Assembly: GCF_006345805.1 (NCBI RefSeq)
Contig: NC_042997.1
Coordinates: forward strand, 185,132,001 to 185,196,000
Source of the DNA: Octopus sinensis
Lineage: Eukaryota
Length of the DNA: 64,000 nt
Reading direction: 5' to 3'
The number at the start of each line of letters is the position of its first letter. Position 1 is the stretch's first letter. Shown in pieces: positions 1,541 through 51,832 of this stretch. The position numbers were made by a program, and so were the translations under genes. Under the pieces are notes generated by a model. It made no database searches, had not been told where the DNA came from, and saw only the letters and a list, made by a program, of their open reading frames with translations.

Positions 1541-1682
1541 CATTTTATATATATATGTGTATATATAAACACTATATATGTGCGTGTGAGTGTGTGTACA
1601 TGTATATACACACATACACTCATGCGTACACACACATATAAAAATATACATACATATATGCAAGTATTTTGTATATATGTCT

Positions 1683-1920
1683 GGAGGGGTATGGCTTAGA
1701 AGTTAGGGGTATTGAACTCATAATCGTGAGATTGTGGTTTCTATTCTTGGACCTGGCATTGTGTCGTTTTCTTGAGTACCTTGCTCCAATCCTCTCAACT
1801 GACACAAATGAGTAATCCTGCGATGTCCCGGCGTCTCGTCCAGGGAGGAGGAGTATATACGCCAACGAATCTGCGAAATCGACCTTCTGAGCCTATGGCT
1901 CGGGAAAGATCTTTGATCCC
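1683..1920 (+). mobile_element. Diverged tRNA-derived SINE (family of 5026-5268)
   Basis: A-box-like tggcttagaagttagg, decayed B-box, shared aatgagtaa.cctgcgatg...cgtccagg core. Confidence 0.65.
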
Positions 1921-5268: not shown

Positions 5269-6359
5269 AAAAATTATTATTTAAGAACCTTTTGAATTAT
5301 TTATGAAGGACAGTATCGCGTTTCTATGTGTTCAAGGATCTGCTAGATTAGCAGCCCATATTCTCTGAAATCCCACAGCAATGTCCTTAGATTATCAGTA
5401 AAGCACCTTTAGATAATATATAGAACATCGCAAAAATGAAGTGGAGAAAAAAAAAACGGGATGATCGCAGTTGGAATGCTTTTAAAATGCATCTGATCAA
5501 ATGATACCGCTATGGGGTTAAGCAACAACACACCAACAAACGTAACTTTATATTTATTTCCTACAACTGTTGTTATCATACTTACTGACTCTACCCAATG
5601 GTTAGAAATTATATCTTCGGCAATTGTTGTAAAGAATCAGCCCTAATATTAAATATATATATCTCTGGACGCATAAATAGATAAAATAACATAGTTATGT
5701 ACAAGAGATTCTTTCAAATCTATTCACAACCCTCTAACGCTTTTCTACAACTATCACACTCTTTAATTATATACCTTAGTCTTCCTTCCAGCATAACTAA
5801 CAATTACCAACAAAGAACTTATTGATTTTCATCTCGCGTTTTGTATTTATTTTTAAAAATCTCATTTACAATTCTTACTTTATAGATACTTTAATTACTT
5901 CAGATCTATCATATAAAATCTTTTGCCTGGAATCCGTTTCCTTTTTCCTTTGAAGAAAATGTTTTGGAAGACCAATTTCAGCGACAATTTTTGGTTATTT
6001 TCTCAGCTATTTAATAAAGTGGTTTTACACTCGAAGAAAAGAATCTTGTTTATTTTAAACACCCTCACCTCCTAAGAATCTAAGCAGTGACTATCACAGC
6101 TTTCTCTTAAAATTTCGTCCTCTTCTCATATCGCCTTCCCATCTAAATATCACAGTTACTTTCAATGTCCATCATCAGCATCGTCATCATCGTTACTTTC
6201 TTCTTCTTCTTCTTCTTCTTCTTCTTCTTCTTCTTCTTCTTCTTCTTCTTCTTCTTCTTCTTCTTCTTCTTCCCCGCGCCCATCATCATCATCATCATCA
6301 TCATCATCATGACCACCACCATCGTCATCGTCGTCGTCGTCGTCATCATCATTATCATC

Positions 6360-6559: not shown

Positions 6560-7625
6560 CAAAGAGGCAAACCTTTTGTAACAGTCCTACTGGGCAGTCT
6601 ATTCCAAAATTCCTTTACATTCCTCTTGATGGCTTCTGATACTGTTCTAAAGGACCCAACAGTAATTGGTACTGTCTTCACCTTCTTCATTTTCTATAGC
6701 CGGGCTATTTCGTAAAAAGTCCCAGAGGATTTTTGCCCTCTCATTTTCGTCCATTATCTTTTCCTGTGTATGTTTGTAACAAGCAACCTTTACCTCATAT
6801 CCATACTTCCGGCATAGTAGCCAGTTAAGGCTTGGGCTACCTTGTCGTGTCTGCGCGTGTATTCTTTTGGCACAAGACTTTCGGAAGCACTAACAATGTG
6901 AGTCAAGCTTTTGACCCTCTTCCCACATATTTTGCAGAGTTGTATTTATCTATCTTTTCGCCATCCATCTTGACTATTCGTGGGTCAAAGGGGGAATGCA
7001 ACATCGACTATATAGTATATGTGGTGCACCTTGTCGACCACCACTAGCTCCGCTCTGTTATGCACTAGCACCTGATCTGTTTGGATTGAAAAAATCCTAG
7101 AGGATTTTGCTAATCTCTGACTCCGCCCCTCTCTGCAGCTTGTGTTCATATCACGTCCTCCCTCTCTCGGGCTCCCACTTTTCGCACAGTTTCCAATGTA
7201 GCACTTTCGCCACCTTGTCGTATCGCCACAAATTGTAATGGTTTGGGGCAAGTGTAGAGTATTCGTTCCTGATACGAGCAAGGATTTCATCCACCCTGTT
7301 GCAGATGTGGCACAGCGGAGACCCTTGCTCATTCCTAAGGTTGACCCACCAGTTCGTTGCCAAAGCTTGGTCCTGCGTTGCCAATATAGTGCTATACTCT
7401 TTTACTCTTTTTACATTTTTCAGTCATTTGACTATGGCCATACCGGAGCACCGCCTTTAGTCGAGAAAATCGCCCCCAGTATTTATTTTCTGTGAGCCTA
7501 GTACTTATTCTATCATTCTCTTTTGCCGAACTGCTAAGTTACGGGGACGTAAACACAGCAGCATCGGTTGTCAAGTTATGTTGGGGGACAAACAAAGACA
7601 CACAAACACACACACACACACACGC

Positions 7626-7718
<93 letters not shown>

Positions 7719-8280
7719 TACGACGAGCTTCTTTCAGTTTCCGTCTACCAAATCCATTCACAAGGCTTTGGTCGGCCCGAGGTTATAGTAGAAGGCACTT
7801 GCCCAAGGTGCAACGCAGTGGGACTGAACCCGGAACCATGTGGTTCATAAGCAAGCTACTTACCACACAGCCACTCCTACGCCGACGGTCTCCTTTTTTA
7901 GGATGCCTTTCATCAGCCAATCCTACCTATTTTTTCCATCAATTTCTGTTGTGGCTACATGGAATTAATTGTGTCGTCCCTTGTTGCGTAATTCTTCTTC
8001 ATGTGCTTTTTTGCACTTCTTCCTTTGTTTCCCTGTTTTGTCTGCCCTCAATACTCCCGCTAACTGTCACTAGCAAAGTTCCCTTATTTTGGGCTAGGTA
8101 TCTCATTAAGCCTTTGAATTCAATACGCACGCAGTCTTGCACATTTATCCGTCCCTTTCCTCCATTTGATCTCTTCATGTATAGGCGATCAGTGTCTGCA
8201 CGTGGATGATGGGCTCCATGCATCGGTAGGAGCTTTCTTGACTTATTATTATTAATGTCATTTACTTTTAATCTGCATGT
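6560..8280 (-). mobile_element. Decayed R4/Dong-like (restriction-like endonuclease) non-LTR retrotransposon 3' region, interrupted by a SINE
   Basis: HHPRADTDRLYMKRSNGGKG, QDQAL, CHIC..., DKVAKVLHWKLCEKW, IQTDQV, VDVAFP motifs; adjacent to (ATT)n tracts. Confidence 0.75.
7395..7883 (-). mobile_element. Major bipartite tRNA-SINE (family A; internal (TA)n/(TG)n, gagtaaaa tail)
   Basis: Head ggagtggctgtgtggtaag...gggttcagtcccac; tail gcagtcaaatgactgaaacaagtaaaagag; more than 12 related copies in the window. Confidence 0.9.
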
Positions 8281-9029: not shown

Positions 9030-9520
9030 GGTCATTTGAATATCTTGGAGGTATAAAGTTTAAGCGTACTCTTGATGACGAAATCTATATTAGAATATCT
9101 AAGACTACAAGTGCTTTCGGAAAACTCTTCCAACGTTTATGGAATTAATACGATTTCAGTTTGAAAATTAAAATAAGTGTAAACAAATCTTGTATGTGCA
9201 GAATCATGGAGTCGCTACTACAGACTTATAAAGATACTGGAAACCTTTCACATGTACCTATTTCTTTATTACCCACAAGGGGCCAAACACAGAGCAGACA
9301 AACAAGGACAGACATAGGTATTAAGTCGATTACATCGACCCCAGTGCGTAAGTGGTACTTAATTTATCGACCCCGAAAGGATGAAAGGCAAAGTCGACCT
9401 CGGCGGAATTTGAACTCAGAACGTAACGACAGACGAAATACGGCTACGCATTTCGCCCGGCGTGCTAGCGTTTCTGCCAGCTCGCCTTTCACATGTACCG
9501 TGTTACGCAGTTGATATCTT
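9030..9520 (+). mobile_element. RTE-like LINE reverse transcriptase fragment interrupted by a SINE
   Basis: FEYLGG...LDDEIYIRISKTTSAFGKLFQRLW. Confidence 0.65.
9259..9485 (-). mobile_element. tRNA-SINE family B (Meta-domain-like core) with 15-bp TSD
   Basis: ggcgagctggcagaaacg...gagttcaaattcc...gcctttcatcctttcggggtcgat; TSD cctttcacatgtacc at 9244 and 9486. Confidence 0.85.
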
Positions 9521-12448: not shown

Positions 12449-13572
12449 CTGTTCAGGAAATAATTAAAGCAGAGATGTGAGTATAAGGTGAATGCATGGT
12501 GAAAATATTACGACAGCCTATATCGATATGTTTAATATCCACACAACGTAACACTCAGTGACCTTTTATTTTATTCAAAAGAAGACTCTGGGTAGAATAT
12601 ACTCTTAAAAGAGAAGAAAAAGAAAGAAAATGCATTTCGAAATTATGTTAAAAGTCATTCAAGTAAGTAGAAATGAGTAAGTGGAGAAAAATTAACTTGA
12701 CAGTTAAGATATTTCTACAAAACCATGTAATTAGTTATAACTGATAGAATGCTAATTTAATAGTGGTCTTCTGGAAGGCTGCCTTCAATATTCAATTATG
12801 ATGCAACATTTTCAATAATATTTTTGAGAATGGTACGTAAATATCAACGCCTCCAGTCATTGCTATTATAAACTTTTCCTCATTTGTCAGTATTAGAAAT
12901 CTATGAGACAGTACTTTGATTAGTGATTATTGCAAGAAACCAAATTCTTCATATGTAATATTCGCATATATTTATTTAATAAGTATTGTCTTTAAAATTT
13001 AAAATCAGAAACTAAGTATGTACATGTGGTTATGTACCAGAACGTCCAACACAACTCTAGATGAGGGTAAATGAGAAGAACAAGTGATTGCGCTTGTCAG
13101 TAATAGCTTTCTTGAATTGATCAGTTATTTGTCGAAACTAAAATAGTTACTGAAAGCATCCTTAGCGTAATTTGGAATTAACGTAAAGTTAAAACACTAC
13201 TCTTTTACTTGTTTCTGTCATTTGACTGCGGCCATGCTCGAGCACTGCCTTTAGTCGAGCAGATCGACCCCAGGACTTATTCTTTGTAAGTCTAGCACTT
13301 ATTCTATCGGATTGTTTTGTCGAACCGCTATATTACGGGGGCGTAAACACAGCAGCATCGGTTCTGAAGCGATGTTGGGGGAACAAACACAGGCACACAA
13401 ACACACACATATATATACATATACATATATACGACAGGCTTCTTTCCGTTTCCGTCTACCAAATCCTTTCACAAGACTTTGGTCGGCCCGAGGCTATAGT
13501 AGAGGACACTTGCCCAATGTGTCACACAATGGGACTGAAGCTGGAACCATGTGGTTCGTAAGCAAGCTACTT

Positions 13573-15618
13573 TATTTCATTAAATTTGTCATGAAGACTG
13601 TACAAAGACTGTGTAGCTGTGCGGGCTGGACAAACACATTAATGAATGAAAATGAAATAGAATGAATAAATGAGAGACGAAACCCAACACCCTCCGGTTG
13701 GATTTTTCTCGAAAACATATTTTCTTGTTTTTTTAAAAATCAATATGAGGTTTCAAACCTCTTACAAGAAGGAGGCACTAAAACCTCTTACTTGACATGT
13801 TTTTTTTAAACACACAATTGAGGTTATAAACCACTACAAATAATACAATAAGATGAGGCTTCAAACCCTATAACGAGGGTCTTTCACCTCCTACTCTTCG
13901 ATATATCTTTCGATATATTCATCATTATCTTCAATGCCGCTTGAGTTCCTGTATGCTGCCATTTCCCATGCCTCACTCATGTAGGACATGTAAGTCGTGT
14001 AAGAGCCACCCGGCCATATGCGACACTCCTCCCCAAATCCTTTAAGCCTTTCCCACAAGGGGAATCTTAGGACCTCCACAGCTATCTGCGGAGGCCATTT
14101 GGGATCCCGTGTGAAGGGCATATCTACTGTCTCTTTATGTTCTTCTACTATTTTTTCCACCTCCCCGCCCTTATAGAAAAAGATAATTAATTGATCATCT
14201 TTAAGGGTGGGGGTGGTTTATTCCACCGTGGGTGGCACAACTTCGGGACATGCAGACGGCACATCATCTCCCGGCTGAGATGACCCATTCTTCTTCCTTC
14301 TTTTTTTCCTTTTCTTCCTGATTTCGGGAGAGTGGAGCTCTTCCGCTTTGTCTGGATACTCTCCCCGCCTCCCGAAGCCTTAGGTTCCTTCGGCGGGCAA
14401 CTATTGTTGCCCGCCTTCTTCCTTTTTAATCCTTTTTGAGTTGAGGAGGCTGAAGCCTCCTCGACCACATCCACCACTCCCCTTGACCGGGTAGGGGAGG
14501 TGGCATCTAGTGACTGTTCCAGGACCTTACCATTGTCCGGGGGGCAGTTCCTTTTAATGTGGTCTGGCTGCAAGCACGAGTGACACTTGGGGGGACGTCC
14601 CTCAAGTATCACTTGATACCTGCAGCTAGCCATTTTCAAGAAATCTGGAAAAACCAGATCTGTTGCGGTCGATAGAGTCCACAGGGTCAAAATCGCTTTT
14701 GATCCTTCCCAATCGACCGCCGGCAATACCCTTACATTTAAGAGCCTGGGCCCGCCATCCCCCAGTCCCCGTCAGATGGTATCTTCAATCCAATCCGCTT
14801 CGGTGCCTGTGGGTAACCCACATACCCAGGCTCGTATTAATTTTCTTCCAGAATATAACGGAAGGAACAGAATTTCCTTGCCTTATAAAGGCTGACTCGC
14901 AAACTGGCGAGCATTTTCCCCGTTGTCAAACAGCAACCATACGGTTGCATGTTTGACACCAGGAGATATATATTTTAAAAAGGACAAATATTCTTTAAGT
15001 TCATTTTTTGACTTGTTTTGGGAAGACGGTGATGGAATTAAGAACTTTAGAATAAGTTCTAAGTACCATCGTCTTCTCCTCCATATCTTTTAACCACTGC
15101 TTAGGCGGGTTAATTTCCCACTCTAAGACAGAATTTTTCTTTTTAAGTTCCTTCTCTGCCATGTCAAAAAACAGTTCAAAAGTTGTTCAAAAGACAGTCT
15201 GCCAAAAAATTAAACCGAATAGAAATAAAACAAAATAAAAGAGAAGGTGAGGAAACTGAAATTAAAGTAATGAAAAGAATGAACCAAAAAGAAAGAAAAA
15301 ATAGAAGGGAAAAGTAAAAGAAAAATCTCACAAATGGCACAGACAAGGAATCCTTTGTATAATACTCCAAAAAGGTAATCCAAATGGCTTATTCTTATTT
15401 TTCTGGCGAGATACGCCCACTAGAATTTACAAAAAGAATTTTGAAGCGAAAATTCTCAATTCACCGTTACAGTGATGAGAACCCAGTATTTTGCTCGCTA
15501 AAGCGAGCCATAATTGACAATTTTTCTTTTTGTTTTTTTTTCTATTTACGGAGCCGAAACTCACATCTTCCACTGTAACAGTCCAGACCAACTAGTGTTG
15601 TATTCGGGTTAACCGGAA
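13573..15618 (-). mobile_element. Non-autonomous ORF1/Gag-only retroelement (HAL1-like) with 15-bp TSD
   Basis: TSD gtaagcaagctactt (13558-13572, 15619-15633); terminal AATAAA; single CCHC knuckle; no RT or endonuclease motif seen. Confidence 0.75.
13891..15162 (-). pseudogene. Gag-like ORF1 with CCHC zinc knuckle (disrupted by stops and frameshifts)
   Basis: MAEKELKKKNSVLEW...; EGRPPKCHSCLQPDHIKRNCP; segments lie in different frames. Confidence 0.75.
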
Positions 15619-21460: not shown

Positions 21461-21463
<3 letters not shown>

Positions 21464-21693
21464 CGGAGATGTACTTGCATAGCGAGTGACTTGATCTGAG
21501 ATCGTGTGCTGGAACGAAAACAATTGCAGCGGGGGAAGGTGTTTATAAGCCATTTAAGAAACACACAAAACCGTTAGATTCACTTCAACATTTAAATTTA
21601 ATTTGTCAAAATATTTTCGTCGCTTTGAGACCGCGACCTGTTCACTGACAAAACTTCGTGCTGCATCTCGTGCTAAGATGCAGCACGAAGTTT
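21461..21693 (-). mobile_element. Small (TA)n-associated element carrying a variant hammerhead
   Basis: Reverse-complement copy at 33656-33865; partial copy at 46840-46945. Confidence 0.75.
21602..21652 (-). ncRNA. Type-I hammerhead-like motif, G3:C8 variant
   Basis: UUUGUCA-GUGAACA-G-GUCGC-ggucucaaa-GCGAC-GAA-AAUAUU-U-UGACAAA. Confidence 0.6.
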
Positions 21694-21696
21694 CAT

Positions 21697-21878
21697 TGTG
21701 CCTGGGGAGAGTTATTCTCTTTTAGTGCCTTATTACTTAACACAATCACGGGTTCGATTTCGACTCATTAATTTATTTAATTTTCTACAAATATAAATAA
21801 GTAATTGAGTGGAAATCAAACCGGTGAATGTGTTAAATAATAAACCACTAAAAGAGAATGACTCTCTTGAGACACAAA
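21697..21878. repeat. Diverged foldback (~80-bp arms)
   Basis: ttgtgcctggggagagttattctcttttagtg... vs ...cactaaaagagaatgactctcttgagacacaa. Confidence 0.75.
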
Positions 21879-22401
21879 ATATGTGTGTATGTGTGTGTTT
21901 GTGCCCTTACAATCTGAGGTAGAATAAATTGCTGGGGAGGTAGACAGCTGTGCAAGGAACAGAAACGATTAGCTATTTCAAAAGAAATAATACAAAGTTA
22001 CATAATATTAAATACGAATTTCAGCAATTTCCAGGGGTAAGTCGGTGATACCGACCTCAGTGTTCAACTGGTACTTATTCATTGACAAACACATGCTGAG
22101 AGGATGAAAGGTAAAGTTGACCAGAGCGGAATTTGAACTCAGAACGTAAAGACGAACAAAATGCCGCTAAGCATTTTGCCCGGTATGCTAACGATTCTGC
22201 CAGCACACCGCCTTCCGTAATATTAAATATTGACACCAATTTACTCCAAGAAAAATTTGAAGTTTCGAGTTCAGTTTGCGCATAACCAAAAAAGCAGGAA
22301 AGACCAGGAATTATAAGAATAGAGAAATTACCCATTCATATTTACAGTAATATCTGTCTCTCTTTTTCGCTTTTTAACTTTCTCTCTCTGTCGCTCTCTC
22401 C

Positions 22402-23569: not shown

Positions 23570-23574
<5 letters not shown>

Positions 23575-23780
23575 TACTCTTTTAATTGTTTCAGTCATTT
23601 TGACTGCGGCCATGCGGGAGCACCGCCTTTAGTCGAGCAAATCGACCCCAGGACTTATTCTTTGTAAGCCTAGTACTTATTCTATCGGTCTCTTTTGCCG
23701 AACGGCTAAGTTACGGGGACGTAAACACACCAGCATCGGTTGTCAAGCGATGTTGGGGGGACAAACACAGACACACAAAC

Positions 23781-23825
<45 letters not shown>

Positions 23826-23998
23826 CATATATACAACGGGCTTCATTCAGTTTCCGTCTACCAAATCCACTCAGAAGACTTCGGTCGGCCCGAGGCTATA
23901 GTAGAAGACACTTGCCCAAGGTGCTACGCAGTGGGACTGAACCCGGAACCATCTGGTTGGTAAGCAAGCTATTTACCACACACCCACTCCTACGCCTA
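23570..23998 (-). mobile_element. SINE family A
   Basis: Full-length match to family A. Confidence 0.9.
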
Positions 23999-24044
23999 TA
24001 TATATATATATAATATATATATGTGTGTATGTATGTGTGTGTGT

Positions 24045-33612: not shown

Positions 33613-33674
33613 TAATATATAATATATATATATATAATATATATATATATATATACATGAGATGCAGCACGGAC

Positions 33675-33724
33675 TTTGTCAGTGAACAGGTCGCGGATTT
33701 TAGCGACGAAAATATTTTGACAAA
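33675..33724 (+). ncRNA. Type-I hammerhead-like motif, G3:C8 variant (second copy)
   Basis: UUUGUCA-GUGAACA-G-GUCGC-ggauuuua-GCGAC-GAA-AAUAUU-U-UGACAAA; only loop II differs from the first copy. Confidence 0.6.
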
Positions 33725-34399
33725 TTAAACTTAAATGTTGAAGTGAATCGAACGGCTTTTGTGTGTTTCTTAAATGGCTTATAAACACCTTCCACGCTGC
33801 AATTGTTTTCGTTTCAGCACACGATCTCAGATCAAATTACTTGCTATGCGAGTACATCTCCGTAATATATATATATATTTATGTATATAGTGTATATGGG
33901 AGACATACGAGAAATAGAAAGGGAAGCATTAAGAAGGGAGAGAGATTTAGATGAAAATACGCAGATGAGTACGAAAATAGACAAAGAGCGGGTAATTAAG
34001 AAGAATACGTGTAAGGCTTATGCGTAGCTTCCTTATGTATTACTAAATCTACAAAACAATGACGTGTTACCGATATTTGTTCAAATGCAATGCATACGTT
34101 TTGTTAAAACTAATGGAAATGAAATATATCAGACATGATGGAAGCGAAAGAATATTTAATTAAATGCGCGCCTCGACTTAAAAATACATTCTCGAACACT
34201 TAAAGAGACACAGTTTTGTATATGAAAAATGTTGCATGCACATAGGAAACGGATTAAAATACTTCTTCATTGATACCCAGAGATGCGTATATAAGTATGT
34301 GCGTGCGCATGAGTTTGAGTACAAACACATACGTATATAATAAATTGGCATATGTATAAATGTATATATATATACACTAATATATATATATATATACAT

Positions 34400-44138: not shown

Positions 44139-44550
44139 GTATTTCTTTATTGCCAGGGGGCTAAACACTGAGAAGACAAACAAGGACAGACAAACGGATT
44201 AAGTCAATTATATCGACCCCAGTGCGAATCTGGTACTTATTTAATCGACCCCGAAAGGATGAAAGGCAAAGTCGACCTCGGCAGAATTTGAACTCAGAAC
44301 GTAATGATAGACGGAATACCTATTTCTTTACTACCCACAAGGGGCTGAACACAGAGAGGACAAACAAGAACAGACAAACGGATTAAGTCGATTATATCGA
44401 CCCCAGTGCGTAACTGGTACTTATTTAATCGACCCCTAAAGGATGAAAGGCAAAGTCGACCTCGGCGGAATTTGAACTCAGAACGTAACGGTAGACGAAA
44501 TACGGCTACGCATTTCGCCCGGCGCGCTAACGTTTCTGCCAGCTCGCCGC
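44139..44550 (-). mobile_element. SINE family B head-to-tail dimer
   Basis: Second unit begins at the gtatt junction after aaagaaatag. Confidence 0.85.
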
Positions 44551-46652: not shown

Positions 46653-47059
46653 CTATAGATATTTAGACAGTTCAAATAAATTTGATCTGATTTTAATATT
46701 TAACGTCTTAGAATATTCAACGACATTTATATATTTTGCACATATACCAGTAAAATATCTCTCTCATACAAATATATAAATTTGCCTTGGCTTTGTTGTC
46801 TCATTTTATTTAACCTATATATATATATATATATATAGTAATTGCAGCGTAGAAGGCGTTTATAAGCCATTTAAAAACACACAAAAACCGTTCGATTCAC
46901 TTCAACATTTAAAATTAATTTGTCAAAATATTTTCGTTGCTTTGAAACTTATTTTTAAAGAGTTAATTAGGTATCTATTTTCTATATATTAGTTCATTTA
47001 CTTATTCAGCTATAGATTTATATTTAGTTATATGTTTATACATTTATTATACTAGTGTA

Positions 47060-50304: not shown

Positions 50305-50715
50305 TACTCTTTACTCTTTTACTTGTTTCAGTCATTTGACTGCGGCCATGCTGGAGCACCGCGTTTAGTCGAACAAATCGACCCCGGGACTTATTCTTTG
50401 TAAGCCCAGTACTTATACTATTGGTCTCTTTTGCCGAACCGCTAAGTGACGGGGACGTAAACACACCAGCATCGGTTGTCAAGCAATGCTAGGGGGACAA
50501 ACACAGACACACAAACATACACACACACATATATATATACATACATATACACGACGAGCTTCTTTCAGTTTCCGTCTACCAAATCCACTCACAAGGCTTT
50601 GGTCGGCCCGAGGCTATAGTAGAAGACACTTGCCCAAGATGCCACGCAGTGGGACTGAACCGGAAACCATGTGGTTGGTAAGCAAGCTATTTACCACACA
50701 GCCACTCCTACGCCA
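50305..50715 (-). mobile_element. SINE family A
   Basis: Full-length match. Confidence 0.9.
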
Positions 50716-51431: not shown

Positions 51432-51832
51432 TCTTTATTTATTGCCCAAAAGGGGCTAAACATAGAGGGAACAAATAAGGACAGACAATGGACAGACAAC
51501 GACAGACAAGTCGATTACATCGACCACAGTGCGAAAGGATAAAAGGCAAAGTCGACCTCGGCGAAATTTGAGCTTTGAACGTAACAGCAGACGAAATACC
51601 TATTTCTTTACTACCCACAAGGGGCTAAACACAGAGGGGACAAACAAGGACAGACAAACGGATTAAGTCGATTATATCGACCCCAGTGAGTAACTGGTAC
51701 TTATTTAATCGCCCCCGAAAGGATGAAAGGGTAAGTCGACCGCGGCGGAATTTGAACTCAGAACGTAGCGGCAGAGGAAATACGGCTAATCATTTAGCCC
51801 GGCGTGCCAACGTTTCTGCCAACTTGCCGACT
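51432..51832 (-). mobile_element. SINE family B dimer nested in an old family-A copy
   Basis: Same internal junction; gaagtaaac duplicated at both flanks. Confidence 0.8.

Follow-up and report, generated by a model that had tools for sequence, protein, structure and literature searches.

A hammerhead motif with a swapped G3:C8 core pair at the 5' end of a Penelope-like retroelement of Octopus sinensis

Structure and location of the hammerhead motif

The window analyzed here is the whole 64-kb stretch of Octopus sinensis DNA. When its letters were read for stems and core, a type I minimal hammerhead motif with a G3:C8 core was found on the minus strand at 21652-21602. Stem I has 7 bp, with UUUGUCA at 21652-21646 pairing with UGACAAA at 21608-21602, and is followed by the core GUGAACA at 21645-21639, in which G3 is 21645 and C8 is 21640. 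A single extra G at 21638 lies between the core and stem II, whose 5 bp join GUCGC (21637-21633) to GCGAC (21623-21619) and close a loop II of 9 nt. After stem II, counted as GAAA, then the palindromic AAUAUU and then U17, GAA occupies 21618-21616, and the 6-nt palindrome of stem III (A15.1 to U16.1) occupies 21615-21610 on the minus strand. U17 is at 21609, and the predicted cut falls between 21609 and 21608. U4, G5, A6 and A9, G12, A13 and A14, A15.1-U16.1 and H17 (here U) are all present, whereas the literal consensus of C3 plus G8 is replaced by G3 and C8. The layout is that of type I, with three helices round the core and an open-ended stem I, stem III being merely a 6-nt palindrome; the extra nucleotide after A9, G10.1-C11.1 and the palindromic stem III are marks of the minimal hammerheads that Penelope-like elements (PLEs) carry.

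A relaxed hammerhead descriptor found 2 places in the window, as against 1 place in total over 200 shuffled windows, and the motif is real and not a chance match. Folding of a 209-nt RNA gave pair probabilities of 0.4-0.8 for stem I and 0.97-0.98 for stem II, while the folding z-score of the motif alone was only -1.7. The intermolecular AAUAUU duplex, all A-U, was calculated at -0.2 kcal/mol; full stem III pairing could form only between two ribozyme copies, and would be weak there. No hammerhead was present among all 13 Rfam matches of one scan or the best 150 of 196 of another, and the microsatellite-driven miRNA matches, the only kind among those listed, were rejected as relevant RNAs.

The motif lies in a short unit (21461-21669, minus strand) copied from the 5' end of a Penelope-like element, here called family A, and laid out as a G+AGATG start, the hammerhead, the start of a reading frame, a tail and then (TA)n. 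The first codons of this RT/GIY-YIG frame occupy 21461-21553 on the minus strand, with the ATG at 21553, 55 nt downstream of the predicted cut. Within them lie the position of the tail-less 3' end (about 21521) and a tail of about 60 nt (21520-21461), which may mark two priming sites. A short inverted copy of the 5' end of the unit (21676-21693, plus strand) forms a fold-back junction typical of Penelope insertions. A second full copy is located at 33659-33865 on the plus strand; it belongs to the loop II GGAUUUUA subfamily and carries a hammerhead at about 33675-33724, again with a G3:C8 core. The third copy (46840-46948, minus strand) is 5'-truncated and tail-less: the core is missing, as are the 5' arms of both stem I and stem II.

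The first-pass annotation had described the stems, the GUGAACA core, the extra purine, GAA, AAUAUU and U17 exactly as they were found here, and its expectation that a standard search would miss the motif agrees with the Rfam scans. It had also counted three copies in the window; all three are present, but only two of them bear the hammerhead.

Adjoining the first copy is an inverted pair of truncated copies of a related family, family C (21699-21883, 81-83% identity), both arms of which are without the core. The window also contains many copies of two more families of dispersed repeats, each about 300-400 bp long and probably SINE-like, one at 7402-7861, 13196-13572, 23574-24005 and 50310-50714, and the other at 9190-9487, 44154-44549 and 51532-51829. 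A 194-aa open frame with a CxxCx4HxxxxC zinc-knuckle (14187-14771, minus strand) is probably a retroelement ORF1/gag fragment.

The unit is the 5' end of a Penelope-like element

The partner element was sought through copies in which something other than (TA)n follows the tail. A shared continuation beyond the tail, leading into long elements, was present at 40 scored places among 49 candidates. The long copies are built as a terminal repeat, an RT/GIY-YIG frame and a second terminal repeat, and in L174 and L175 the hammerhead motif is present in both repeats. In L174 the 5' unit carries the tail, one frameshift divides the frame into pieces of 608 and 475 aa, and the 3' unit, which lies 4.4 kb away, is tail-less; L175 is similar, and both of its terminal units are 95% identical to the window copy. 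L321 has a 1,042-aa open frame, the first residues of which belong to the flank. Overall, identity between the unit and the ends of long coding elements was 90-95%. The data showed that the unit is the 5' end of a Penelope-like retroelement and not a separate mobile family. The first-pass annotation had proposed a mobile family of about 200 bp that targets TA; the unit of about 205 bp followed by (TA)n was confirmed, and its independence was not. Its assignment of the motif to the Penelope-type minimal hammerheads is supported by the motif in both terminal repeats of RT/endonuclease elements, and the partner element is identified in L174, L175 and L321.

The element protein contains the RT stretches LYGLRKDHK, SMDVVSLYPSI and RYVDD, the endonuclease stretch GIVYQI..YIGET and, ahead of the endonuclease, a Cx3CxxC linker (CQSNCAVC). 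By itself it gave nothing significant in Pfam or PDB searches, but it aligned end to end with a frame that matches Pfam RVT_1 and GIY-YIG (E 3e-10); among 41 aligned homologs, RVT_1 was matched in 6 and GIY-YIG in 3. A single frame with RT and C-terminal GIY-YIG is the mark of endonuclease-positive PLEs, and terminal pseudo-repeats, a tail at one end only, here lying inside the reading frame, and inverted 5'-truncated copies are marks of PLE insertion. It is nearly certain that the motif belongs to the Penelope hammerhead group. Neptune and Nematis are described as having a CX2-5CxxC linker before the endonuclease and (TA)n targeting (10.1101/2021.04.23.441226), so the linker and the (TA)n flanks would fit Neptune or Nematis, by clade definition and with an RT tree that holds no named reference proteins.

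Several other candidates were rejected. An abundant GIY-YIG family of 781 aa, found with PF01541, was discarded as the partner because its loci have no match to the unit, and three pairs of nearby copies were discarded as element ends because no coding element lies between them. The near-identical 781-aa RT/GIY-YIG frames of L036, L037, L038 and L039 represent an unrelated young Penelope-like family, and the descriptor found no hammerhead in their fetched flanks. Canonical CUGANGA hammerhead-like motifs were seen beside other GIY-YIG elements, in L040 at about 6215-6265 (plus strand) and in L042 downstream of the frame.

Covariation of the 3:8 pair among related families

The homologous motifs of related families were compared at the same place in the same genome. 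Family C, whose RT is about 52% identical to that of family A and which is linked to its motif in L327 and L329 (e.g. L329:5281-5329, plus strand), gave 2,557 matches, and U3:A8 was present in 94 of the first 100. Family D, with an RT about 54% identical and linked in L322 (motif at 1654-1703, minus strand) and L323, gave 3,492 matches; of the first 100, 95 were C3:G8. Position 9 was C in 81 of these first 100 family D matches, including copies with long open frames, which shows that the core constraint in this group is not absolute. Family B, for which no linked RT was found, has C17; it gave 534 matches, and among the first 100 of them 86 were C3:G8. An older family E, about 75% identical, had G3:C8 in 5 of 8 copies.

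A covariation alignment of 18 rows, hand-picked to cover the families, contained CG 8 times, GC 7 times and UA 3 times at 3:8, and 3 of the 5 stem II pairs changed on both sides. In this alignment 98% of the cells paired, as against 6-57% in slid controls; because the rows are related, the covariation count is not a probability. U4, G5, G12, A14, A15.1 and the G/U/A positions of stem II were invariant across the families. Since the 3:8 pair of the homologs is C:G or U:A and their stem II shows compensatory changes, G3:C8 is a natural covariation, which bears out the earlier view of it as a compensatory swap. The RTs of the families with the three Watson-Crick forms of 3:8 are only about 50-55% identical. 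In an RT tree without named reference elements, families A, C and D each formed a supported clade, with no order among them, and the best named protein relative was an Octopus vulgaris hypothetical protein, identical to family D over the tree stretch.

Copy number and decay of family A

The genome searched comprised 2.72 Gb. The core 17-mer had 5,965 exact matches and the downstream 17-mer 9,883, while the reversed 17-mer controls gave 0. Five patterns at positions 3/8 gave 6,386 matches in total, of which 5,965 had Watson-Crick G3:C8; the others were G/G (211), G/(A or T) (167), C/C (32) and C/G (11). The 11 canonical GTCACTGAAGAGGTCGC matches were rejected as family A revertants, being copies of other, older families, and locus L102, considered as a canonical-core subfamily, proved to be a C3-C8 copy of family E.

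Private changes were counted in 123 units with CpG and anchor columns left out, and amounted to 2.7% in the core, 2.9% in the stems and 2.8% in the 3' flank: single copies of family A decay neutrally. Subfamily-defining changes were present in 0 of 10 core columns, 1 of 17 stem columns (U-A to U-G), 4 of 8 loop II columns and 8 of 109 flank columns. At this level the contrast with loop II was significant (p = 3e-5, from a separate count), but within family A the core and stems were not significantly more conserved than the flanks (p = 0.46, from that count). The first-pass annotation had held that a core varying as freely as its flanks would speak against a ribozyme. Single copies do vary in this way, but the source lineages, compared between core and loop II, do not, and since dispersed copies are expected to decay neutrally, the variation in single copies is no refutation. 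No variant at 21636-21652 reached 5% in runs of four organism labels. In four runs guessed to be RNA, the unit was covered deeply and the frame thinly; these are contigs, which are silent on expression, strand and cut ends.

G3-G8 mismatch copies made up 3.3% of the matches (the 211 above), as against 0.5% for G3-to-C. On contig C20, at 2.06-6.68 Mb and 17.73 Mb, 15 separate insertions (L385-L399) share one G3-G8 haplotype and have different flanks. The cluster resembles what one source with a broken ribozyme pair would leave by hopping locally; such a source therefore still transposed. The G/G excess is partly inherited and partly arose at or after insertion, the latter because the inverted partners of G8 units are mostly C8. 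For the same reason, and because family E is mostly G3:C8, G3-G8 was rejected as an ancestral intermediate. Among 30 G8 and 30 C8 loci that contain upstream sequence, none continued into an intact frame start.

Insertion ends and origin of the short copies

Family A copies are mostly single or inverted (109 inverted pairs among the fetched loci), 150-205 bp long and located at (TA)n, and the short 5'-end copies outnumber the ORF-bearing ones about hundredfold. In the inverted pairs at L033, L164, L171 and L275, the loop II haplotype differs between the arms, which suggests that a single insertion drew on two RNA templates. The ends of family A copies were surveyed in 96 units from 81 loci on contig C1, picked by an anchor 3' of the cut site and targeting the first 91 of 100 listed anchor places, the few that lie in other loci being omitted. 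The 3' ends fell at two sites, +144-151 in 37 of the 96 units and +205-209 in 47. At the other end, 42 units began at most 6 nt from ATGCAG and 9 extended into upstream repeat sequence. The predicted cleavage site was spanned by 89 of the 96 units. Only 2 started exactly at the predicted cut, both explained by stem I microhomology to the inverted partner, and no clear pile-up of 5' ends at the cut site was seen in the survey or the fetched loci. Among 41 distinct copies from all loci that start at AGATGCAG without upstream sequence, some of which share descent, 32 had an extra G in front, and the template base at that position was C or T in 24 of 24. An untemplated G is an outcome of copying a cap; the extra G could also partly come from fold-back junctions.

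These ends suggest that the transcript begins some 16-18 nt upstream of stem I, and that the element RT would prime at two sites just inside the reading frame and run back to the capped 5' end, leaving thousands of copies of 150-205 bp at (TA)n. Reverse transcription of capped mRNA that had not been cut, with priming within its 5' end, is the most likely source of the short copies, most of which would be cDNAs of that end. If the templates are mostly uncut, cleavage would be slow, partial or confined to tandem transcripts, and insertion would not depend on it. The insertion pattern in the genome thus suggests that cleavage is weak or dispensable, and the 89 spanning units, the lack of a pile-up and the 15 G3-G8 insertions all count against a need for an efficient cut. 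One fold paired the 5' end with the distant priming sites, but five others did not, and such long-range pairing was rejected. A spliced first exon before ACTAAC..TTTCTCAG was also rejected, because the copies share no upstream sequence beyond one G. In L174 (815-845) and L175, this branch-point/acceptor-like ACTAAC..TTTCTCAG ends 14-16 nt before stem I, and no spliced copy was seen; in Drosophila virilis Penelope, an intron reportedly ends in such a position.

The spanned cut site would also be expected if the motif no longer cuts. It could then be a hammerhead-derived fold kept for another job, such as binding the element protein or controlling translation from the ATG that lies 55 nt downstream. 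Alternatively, the ribozyme may have been inactivated recently and its 3:8 pair retained for folding. The 15 insertions of the G3-G8 lineage point the same way, as do the success of family D with C9, the spread of Penelope-like Naiads without a hammerhead (10.1101/2021.04.23.441226) and the lack of cleavage in 8 of 9 Xenopus retrozyme dimers reported as tested (10.64898/2026.07.22.740005). However, U4, G5, G12, A14, A15.1 and the G/U/A positions of stem II are invariant across families, and the 3:8 pair, kept in three Watson-Crick forms by families with such divergent RTs, is described as part of the catalytically active conformation (PMC3088659). Engineered G3:C8 hammerheads are moreover reported to cleave, and to do so better if position 17 is not C; here it is U. 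We regard loss of cutting as a serious but rather unlikely alternative.

Tandem units of about 400 bp, in which the 205-bp unit is combined with 188 bp of reading frame and the junction is the same, were found at L124, L180 and other loci. They would favor the ~200-bp unit being an independent non-autonomous retrozyme that spreads by efficient self-cleavage and circular RNA, and animal retrozymes have been reported as derived from Penelope terminal repeats (10.64898/2026.07.22.740005). Against this, copies start upstream of the ribozyme and not at the cut, and the unit closely matches the ends of long coding elements. The 400-bp junction is present at just 6 places, 5 of them on one contig (the other 3 matches were unrelated sequence), and 4 of 5 distinct junction units have a broken 3:8 pair; the retrozyme mark of tandem repeats with an intact hammerhead in each unit is thus absent. 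The tandem-unit loci include L180 (C30:11384500-11389000), L122, L181, L185 and L186. We consider this origin highly improbable. Where upstream repeat, hammerhead and frame are in one piece, the pair is broken in 3 of 4 independent copies. The octopus copies resemble non-LTR retrozymes in being short non-coding hammerhead copies akin to Penelope terminal repeats, but retrozymes are described as tandem repeats with a ribozyme per unit (PMC7229834; 10.64898/2026.07.22.740005), whereas nearly all octopus copies are single or inverted; they begin upstream of the ribozyme and extend into the first ORF codons.

Discussion

The octopus motif agrees with the type I minimal hammerheads described by Cervera and de la Pena 2014 (PMC4209133) in its terminal-repeat site in an RT/GIY-YIG element, the extra nucleotide between 9 and 10.1, G10.1-C11.1, the short palindromic stem III, the U17 that is common in their Fig. 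S3, and copies that are mostly dispersed and single. It differs in that the 56 representatives of that figure are all C3:G8, U3:A8 or U3-G8, with none G3:C8; its extra nucleotide is G, as against A, C or U in their consensus, and its 7-bp stem I is longer than most of theirs. The minimal Penelope hammerheads are reported there to have low activity, as dimers. U3:A8 is a known natural covariation at 3:8 (Perreault 2011, PMC3088659), reported also from Schistosoma Cercyon elements (PMC4209133). G3:C8 is like it in being a compensatory change at 3:8, and family C is itself a U3:A8 variant. Unlike U3:A8, G3:C8 takes two transversions, and position 8, the 2'-OH of which has been proposed as the general acid, becomes C; in the literature found, G3:C8 is otherwise known only as an engineered mutant. 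No natural G3:C8 hammerhead was found in the literature search, which also returned PMC6765202, PMC13282606, PMC6155905, PMC11014351 and PMC7229834; key hammerhead and Penelope studies outside its coverage could contain one.

Engineered C3G/G8C is reported to rescue G8C partly (PMC8495972; PMC11167929), and in the hammerhead of PAc, a Penelope-like element of Anolis carolinensis, cleavage returns in part with the C3G/G8C double mutant (PMC11167929). A G3-C8 variant was stated to be more active with G17 than with C17 (given there as "data not shown"; PMC3884650), which suggests that a G3-C17 mispair is avoided by the U17 of the octopus motif; as ordinary Penelope hammerheads often have U17 too, this is permissive, not diagnostic. 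PAc is a Poseidon element (Frangieh 2024, PMC11167929) and, like the octopus element, has its hammerhead at the repeat/ORF junction and AT-rich targets. The PAc hammerhead is described as cleaving only with protein, uncut RNA being the main insertion substrate and the tail marking two internal RT starts (PMC11167929); two tail-defining RT starts inside the ORF and insertion of uncut RNA would apply to the octopus element as well. In contrast, PAc is C3:G8 and belongs to Penelope/Poseidon (PMC11167929), while the octopus element has the Cx3CxxC linker of the Neptune/Nematis type and its roughly hundredfold excess of short 5'-end copies.

The reading that we prefer, with a probability of about 0.68, is that the motif is a Penelope-like hammerhead with a naturally swapped G3:C8 pair that would probably cut weakly, either as a dimer or with the help of protein. 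On the comparisons made here, G3:C8 is a variant of the Penelope hammerhead in which the literal C3/G8 consensus is broken, the 3:8 pair is kept and cleavage would probably be weak. Cutting is likely to be weak because most copies run straight over the predicted cut site. The marginal, all-A-U stem III dimer duplex counts against this reading. More speculatively, and with rather low confidence, this could be the first natural active G3:C8 hammerhead, the octopus group having cycled 3:8 through C:G, U:A and G:C to set a low cleavage rate. A slow cut would then spare the capped 5' end for internal priming and flood the genome with short copies, and would still trim tandem transcripts.

Hammerhead searches usually fix C3 and G8, and for this reason a family with about 6,000 copies has been missed by the usual searches and by Rfam. 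The surprise is moderate, since engineered G3:C8 is already known to work partly and U3:A8 is already known in nature. Allowing any Watson-Crick pair at 3:8 should uncover more hammerheads. For priming at internal sites of uncut RNA, the in vitro evidence comes from one lizard element; the insertion ends support it at the genome level in a second clade. One octopus genome holds a natural series of homologous ribozymes, comprising C3:G8, U3:A8 and G3:C8 forms, a C9 form and a G3-G8 mismatch lineage, and this series, tied to related elements, is a ready panel for learning what Penelope hammerheads do.
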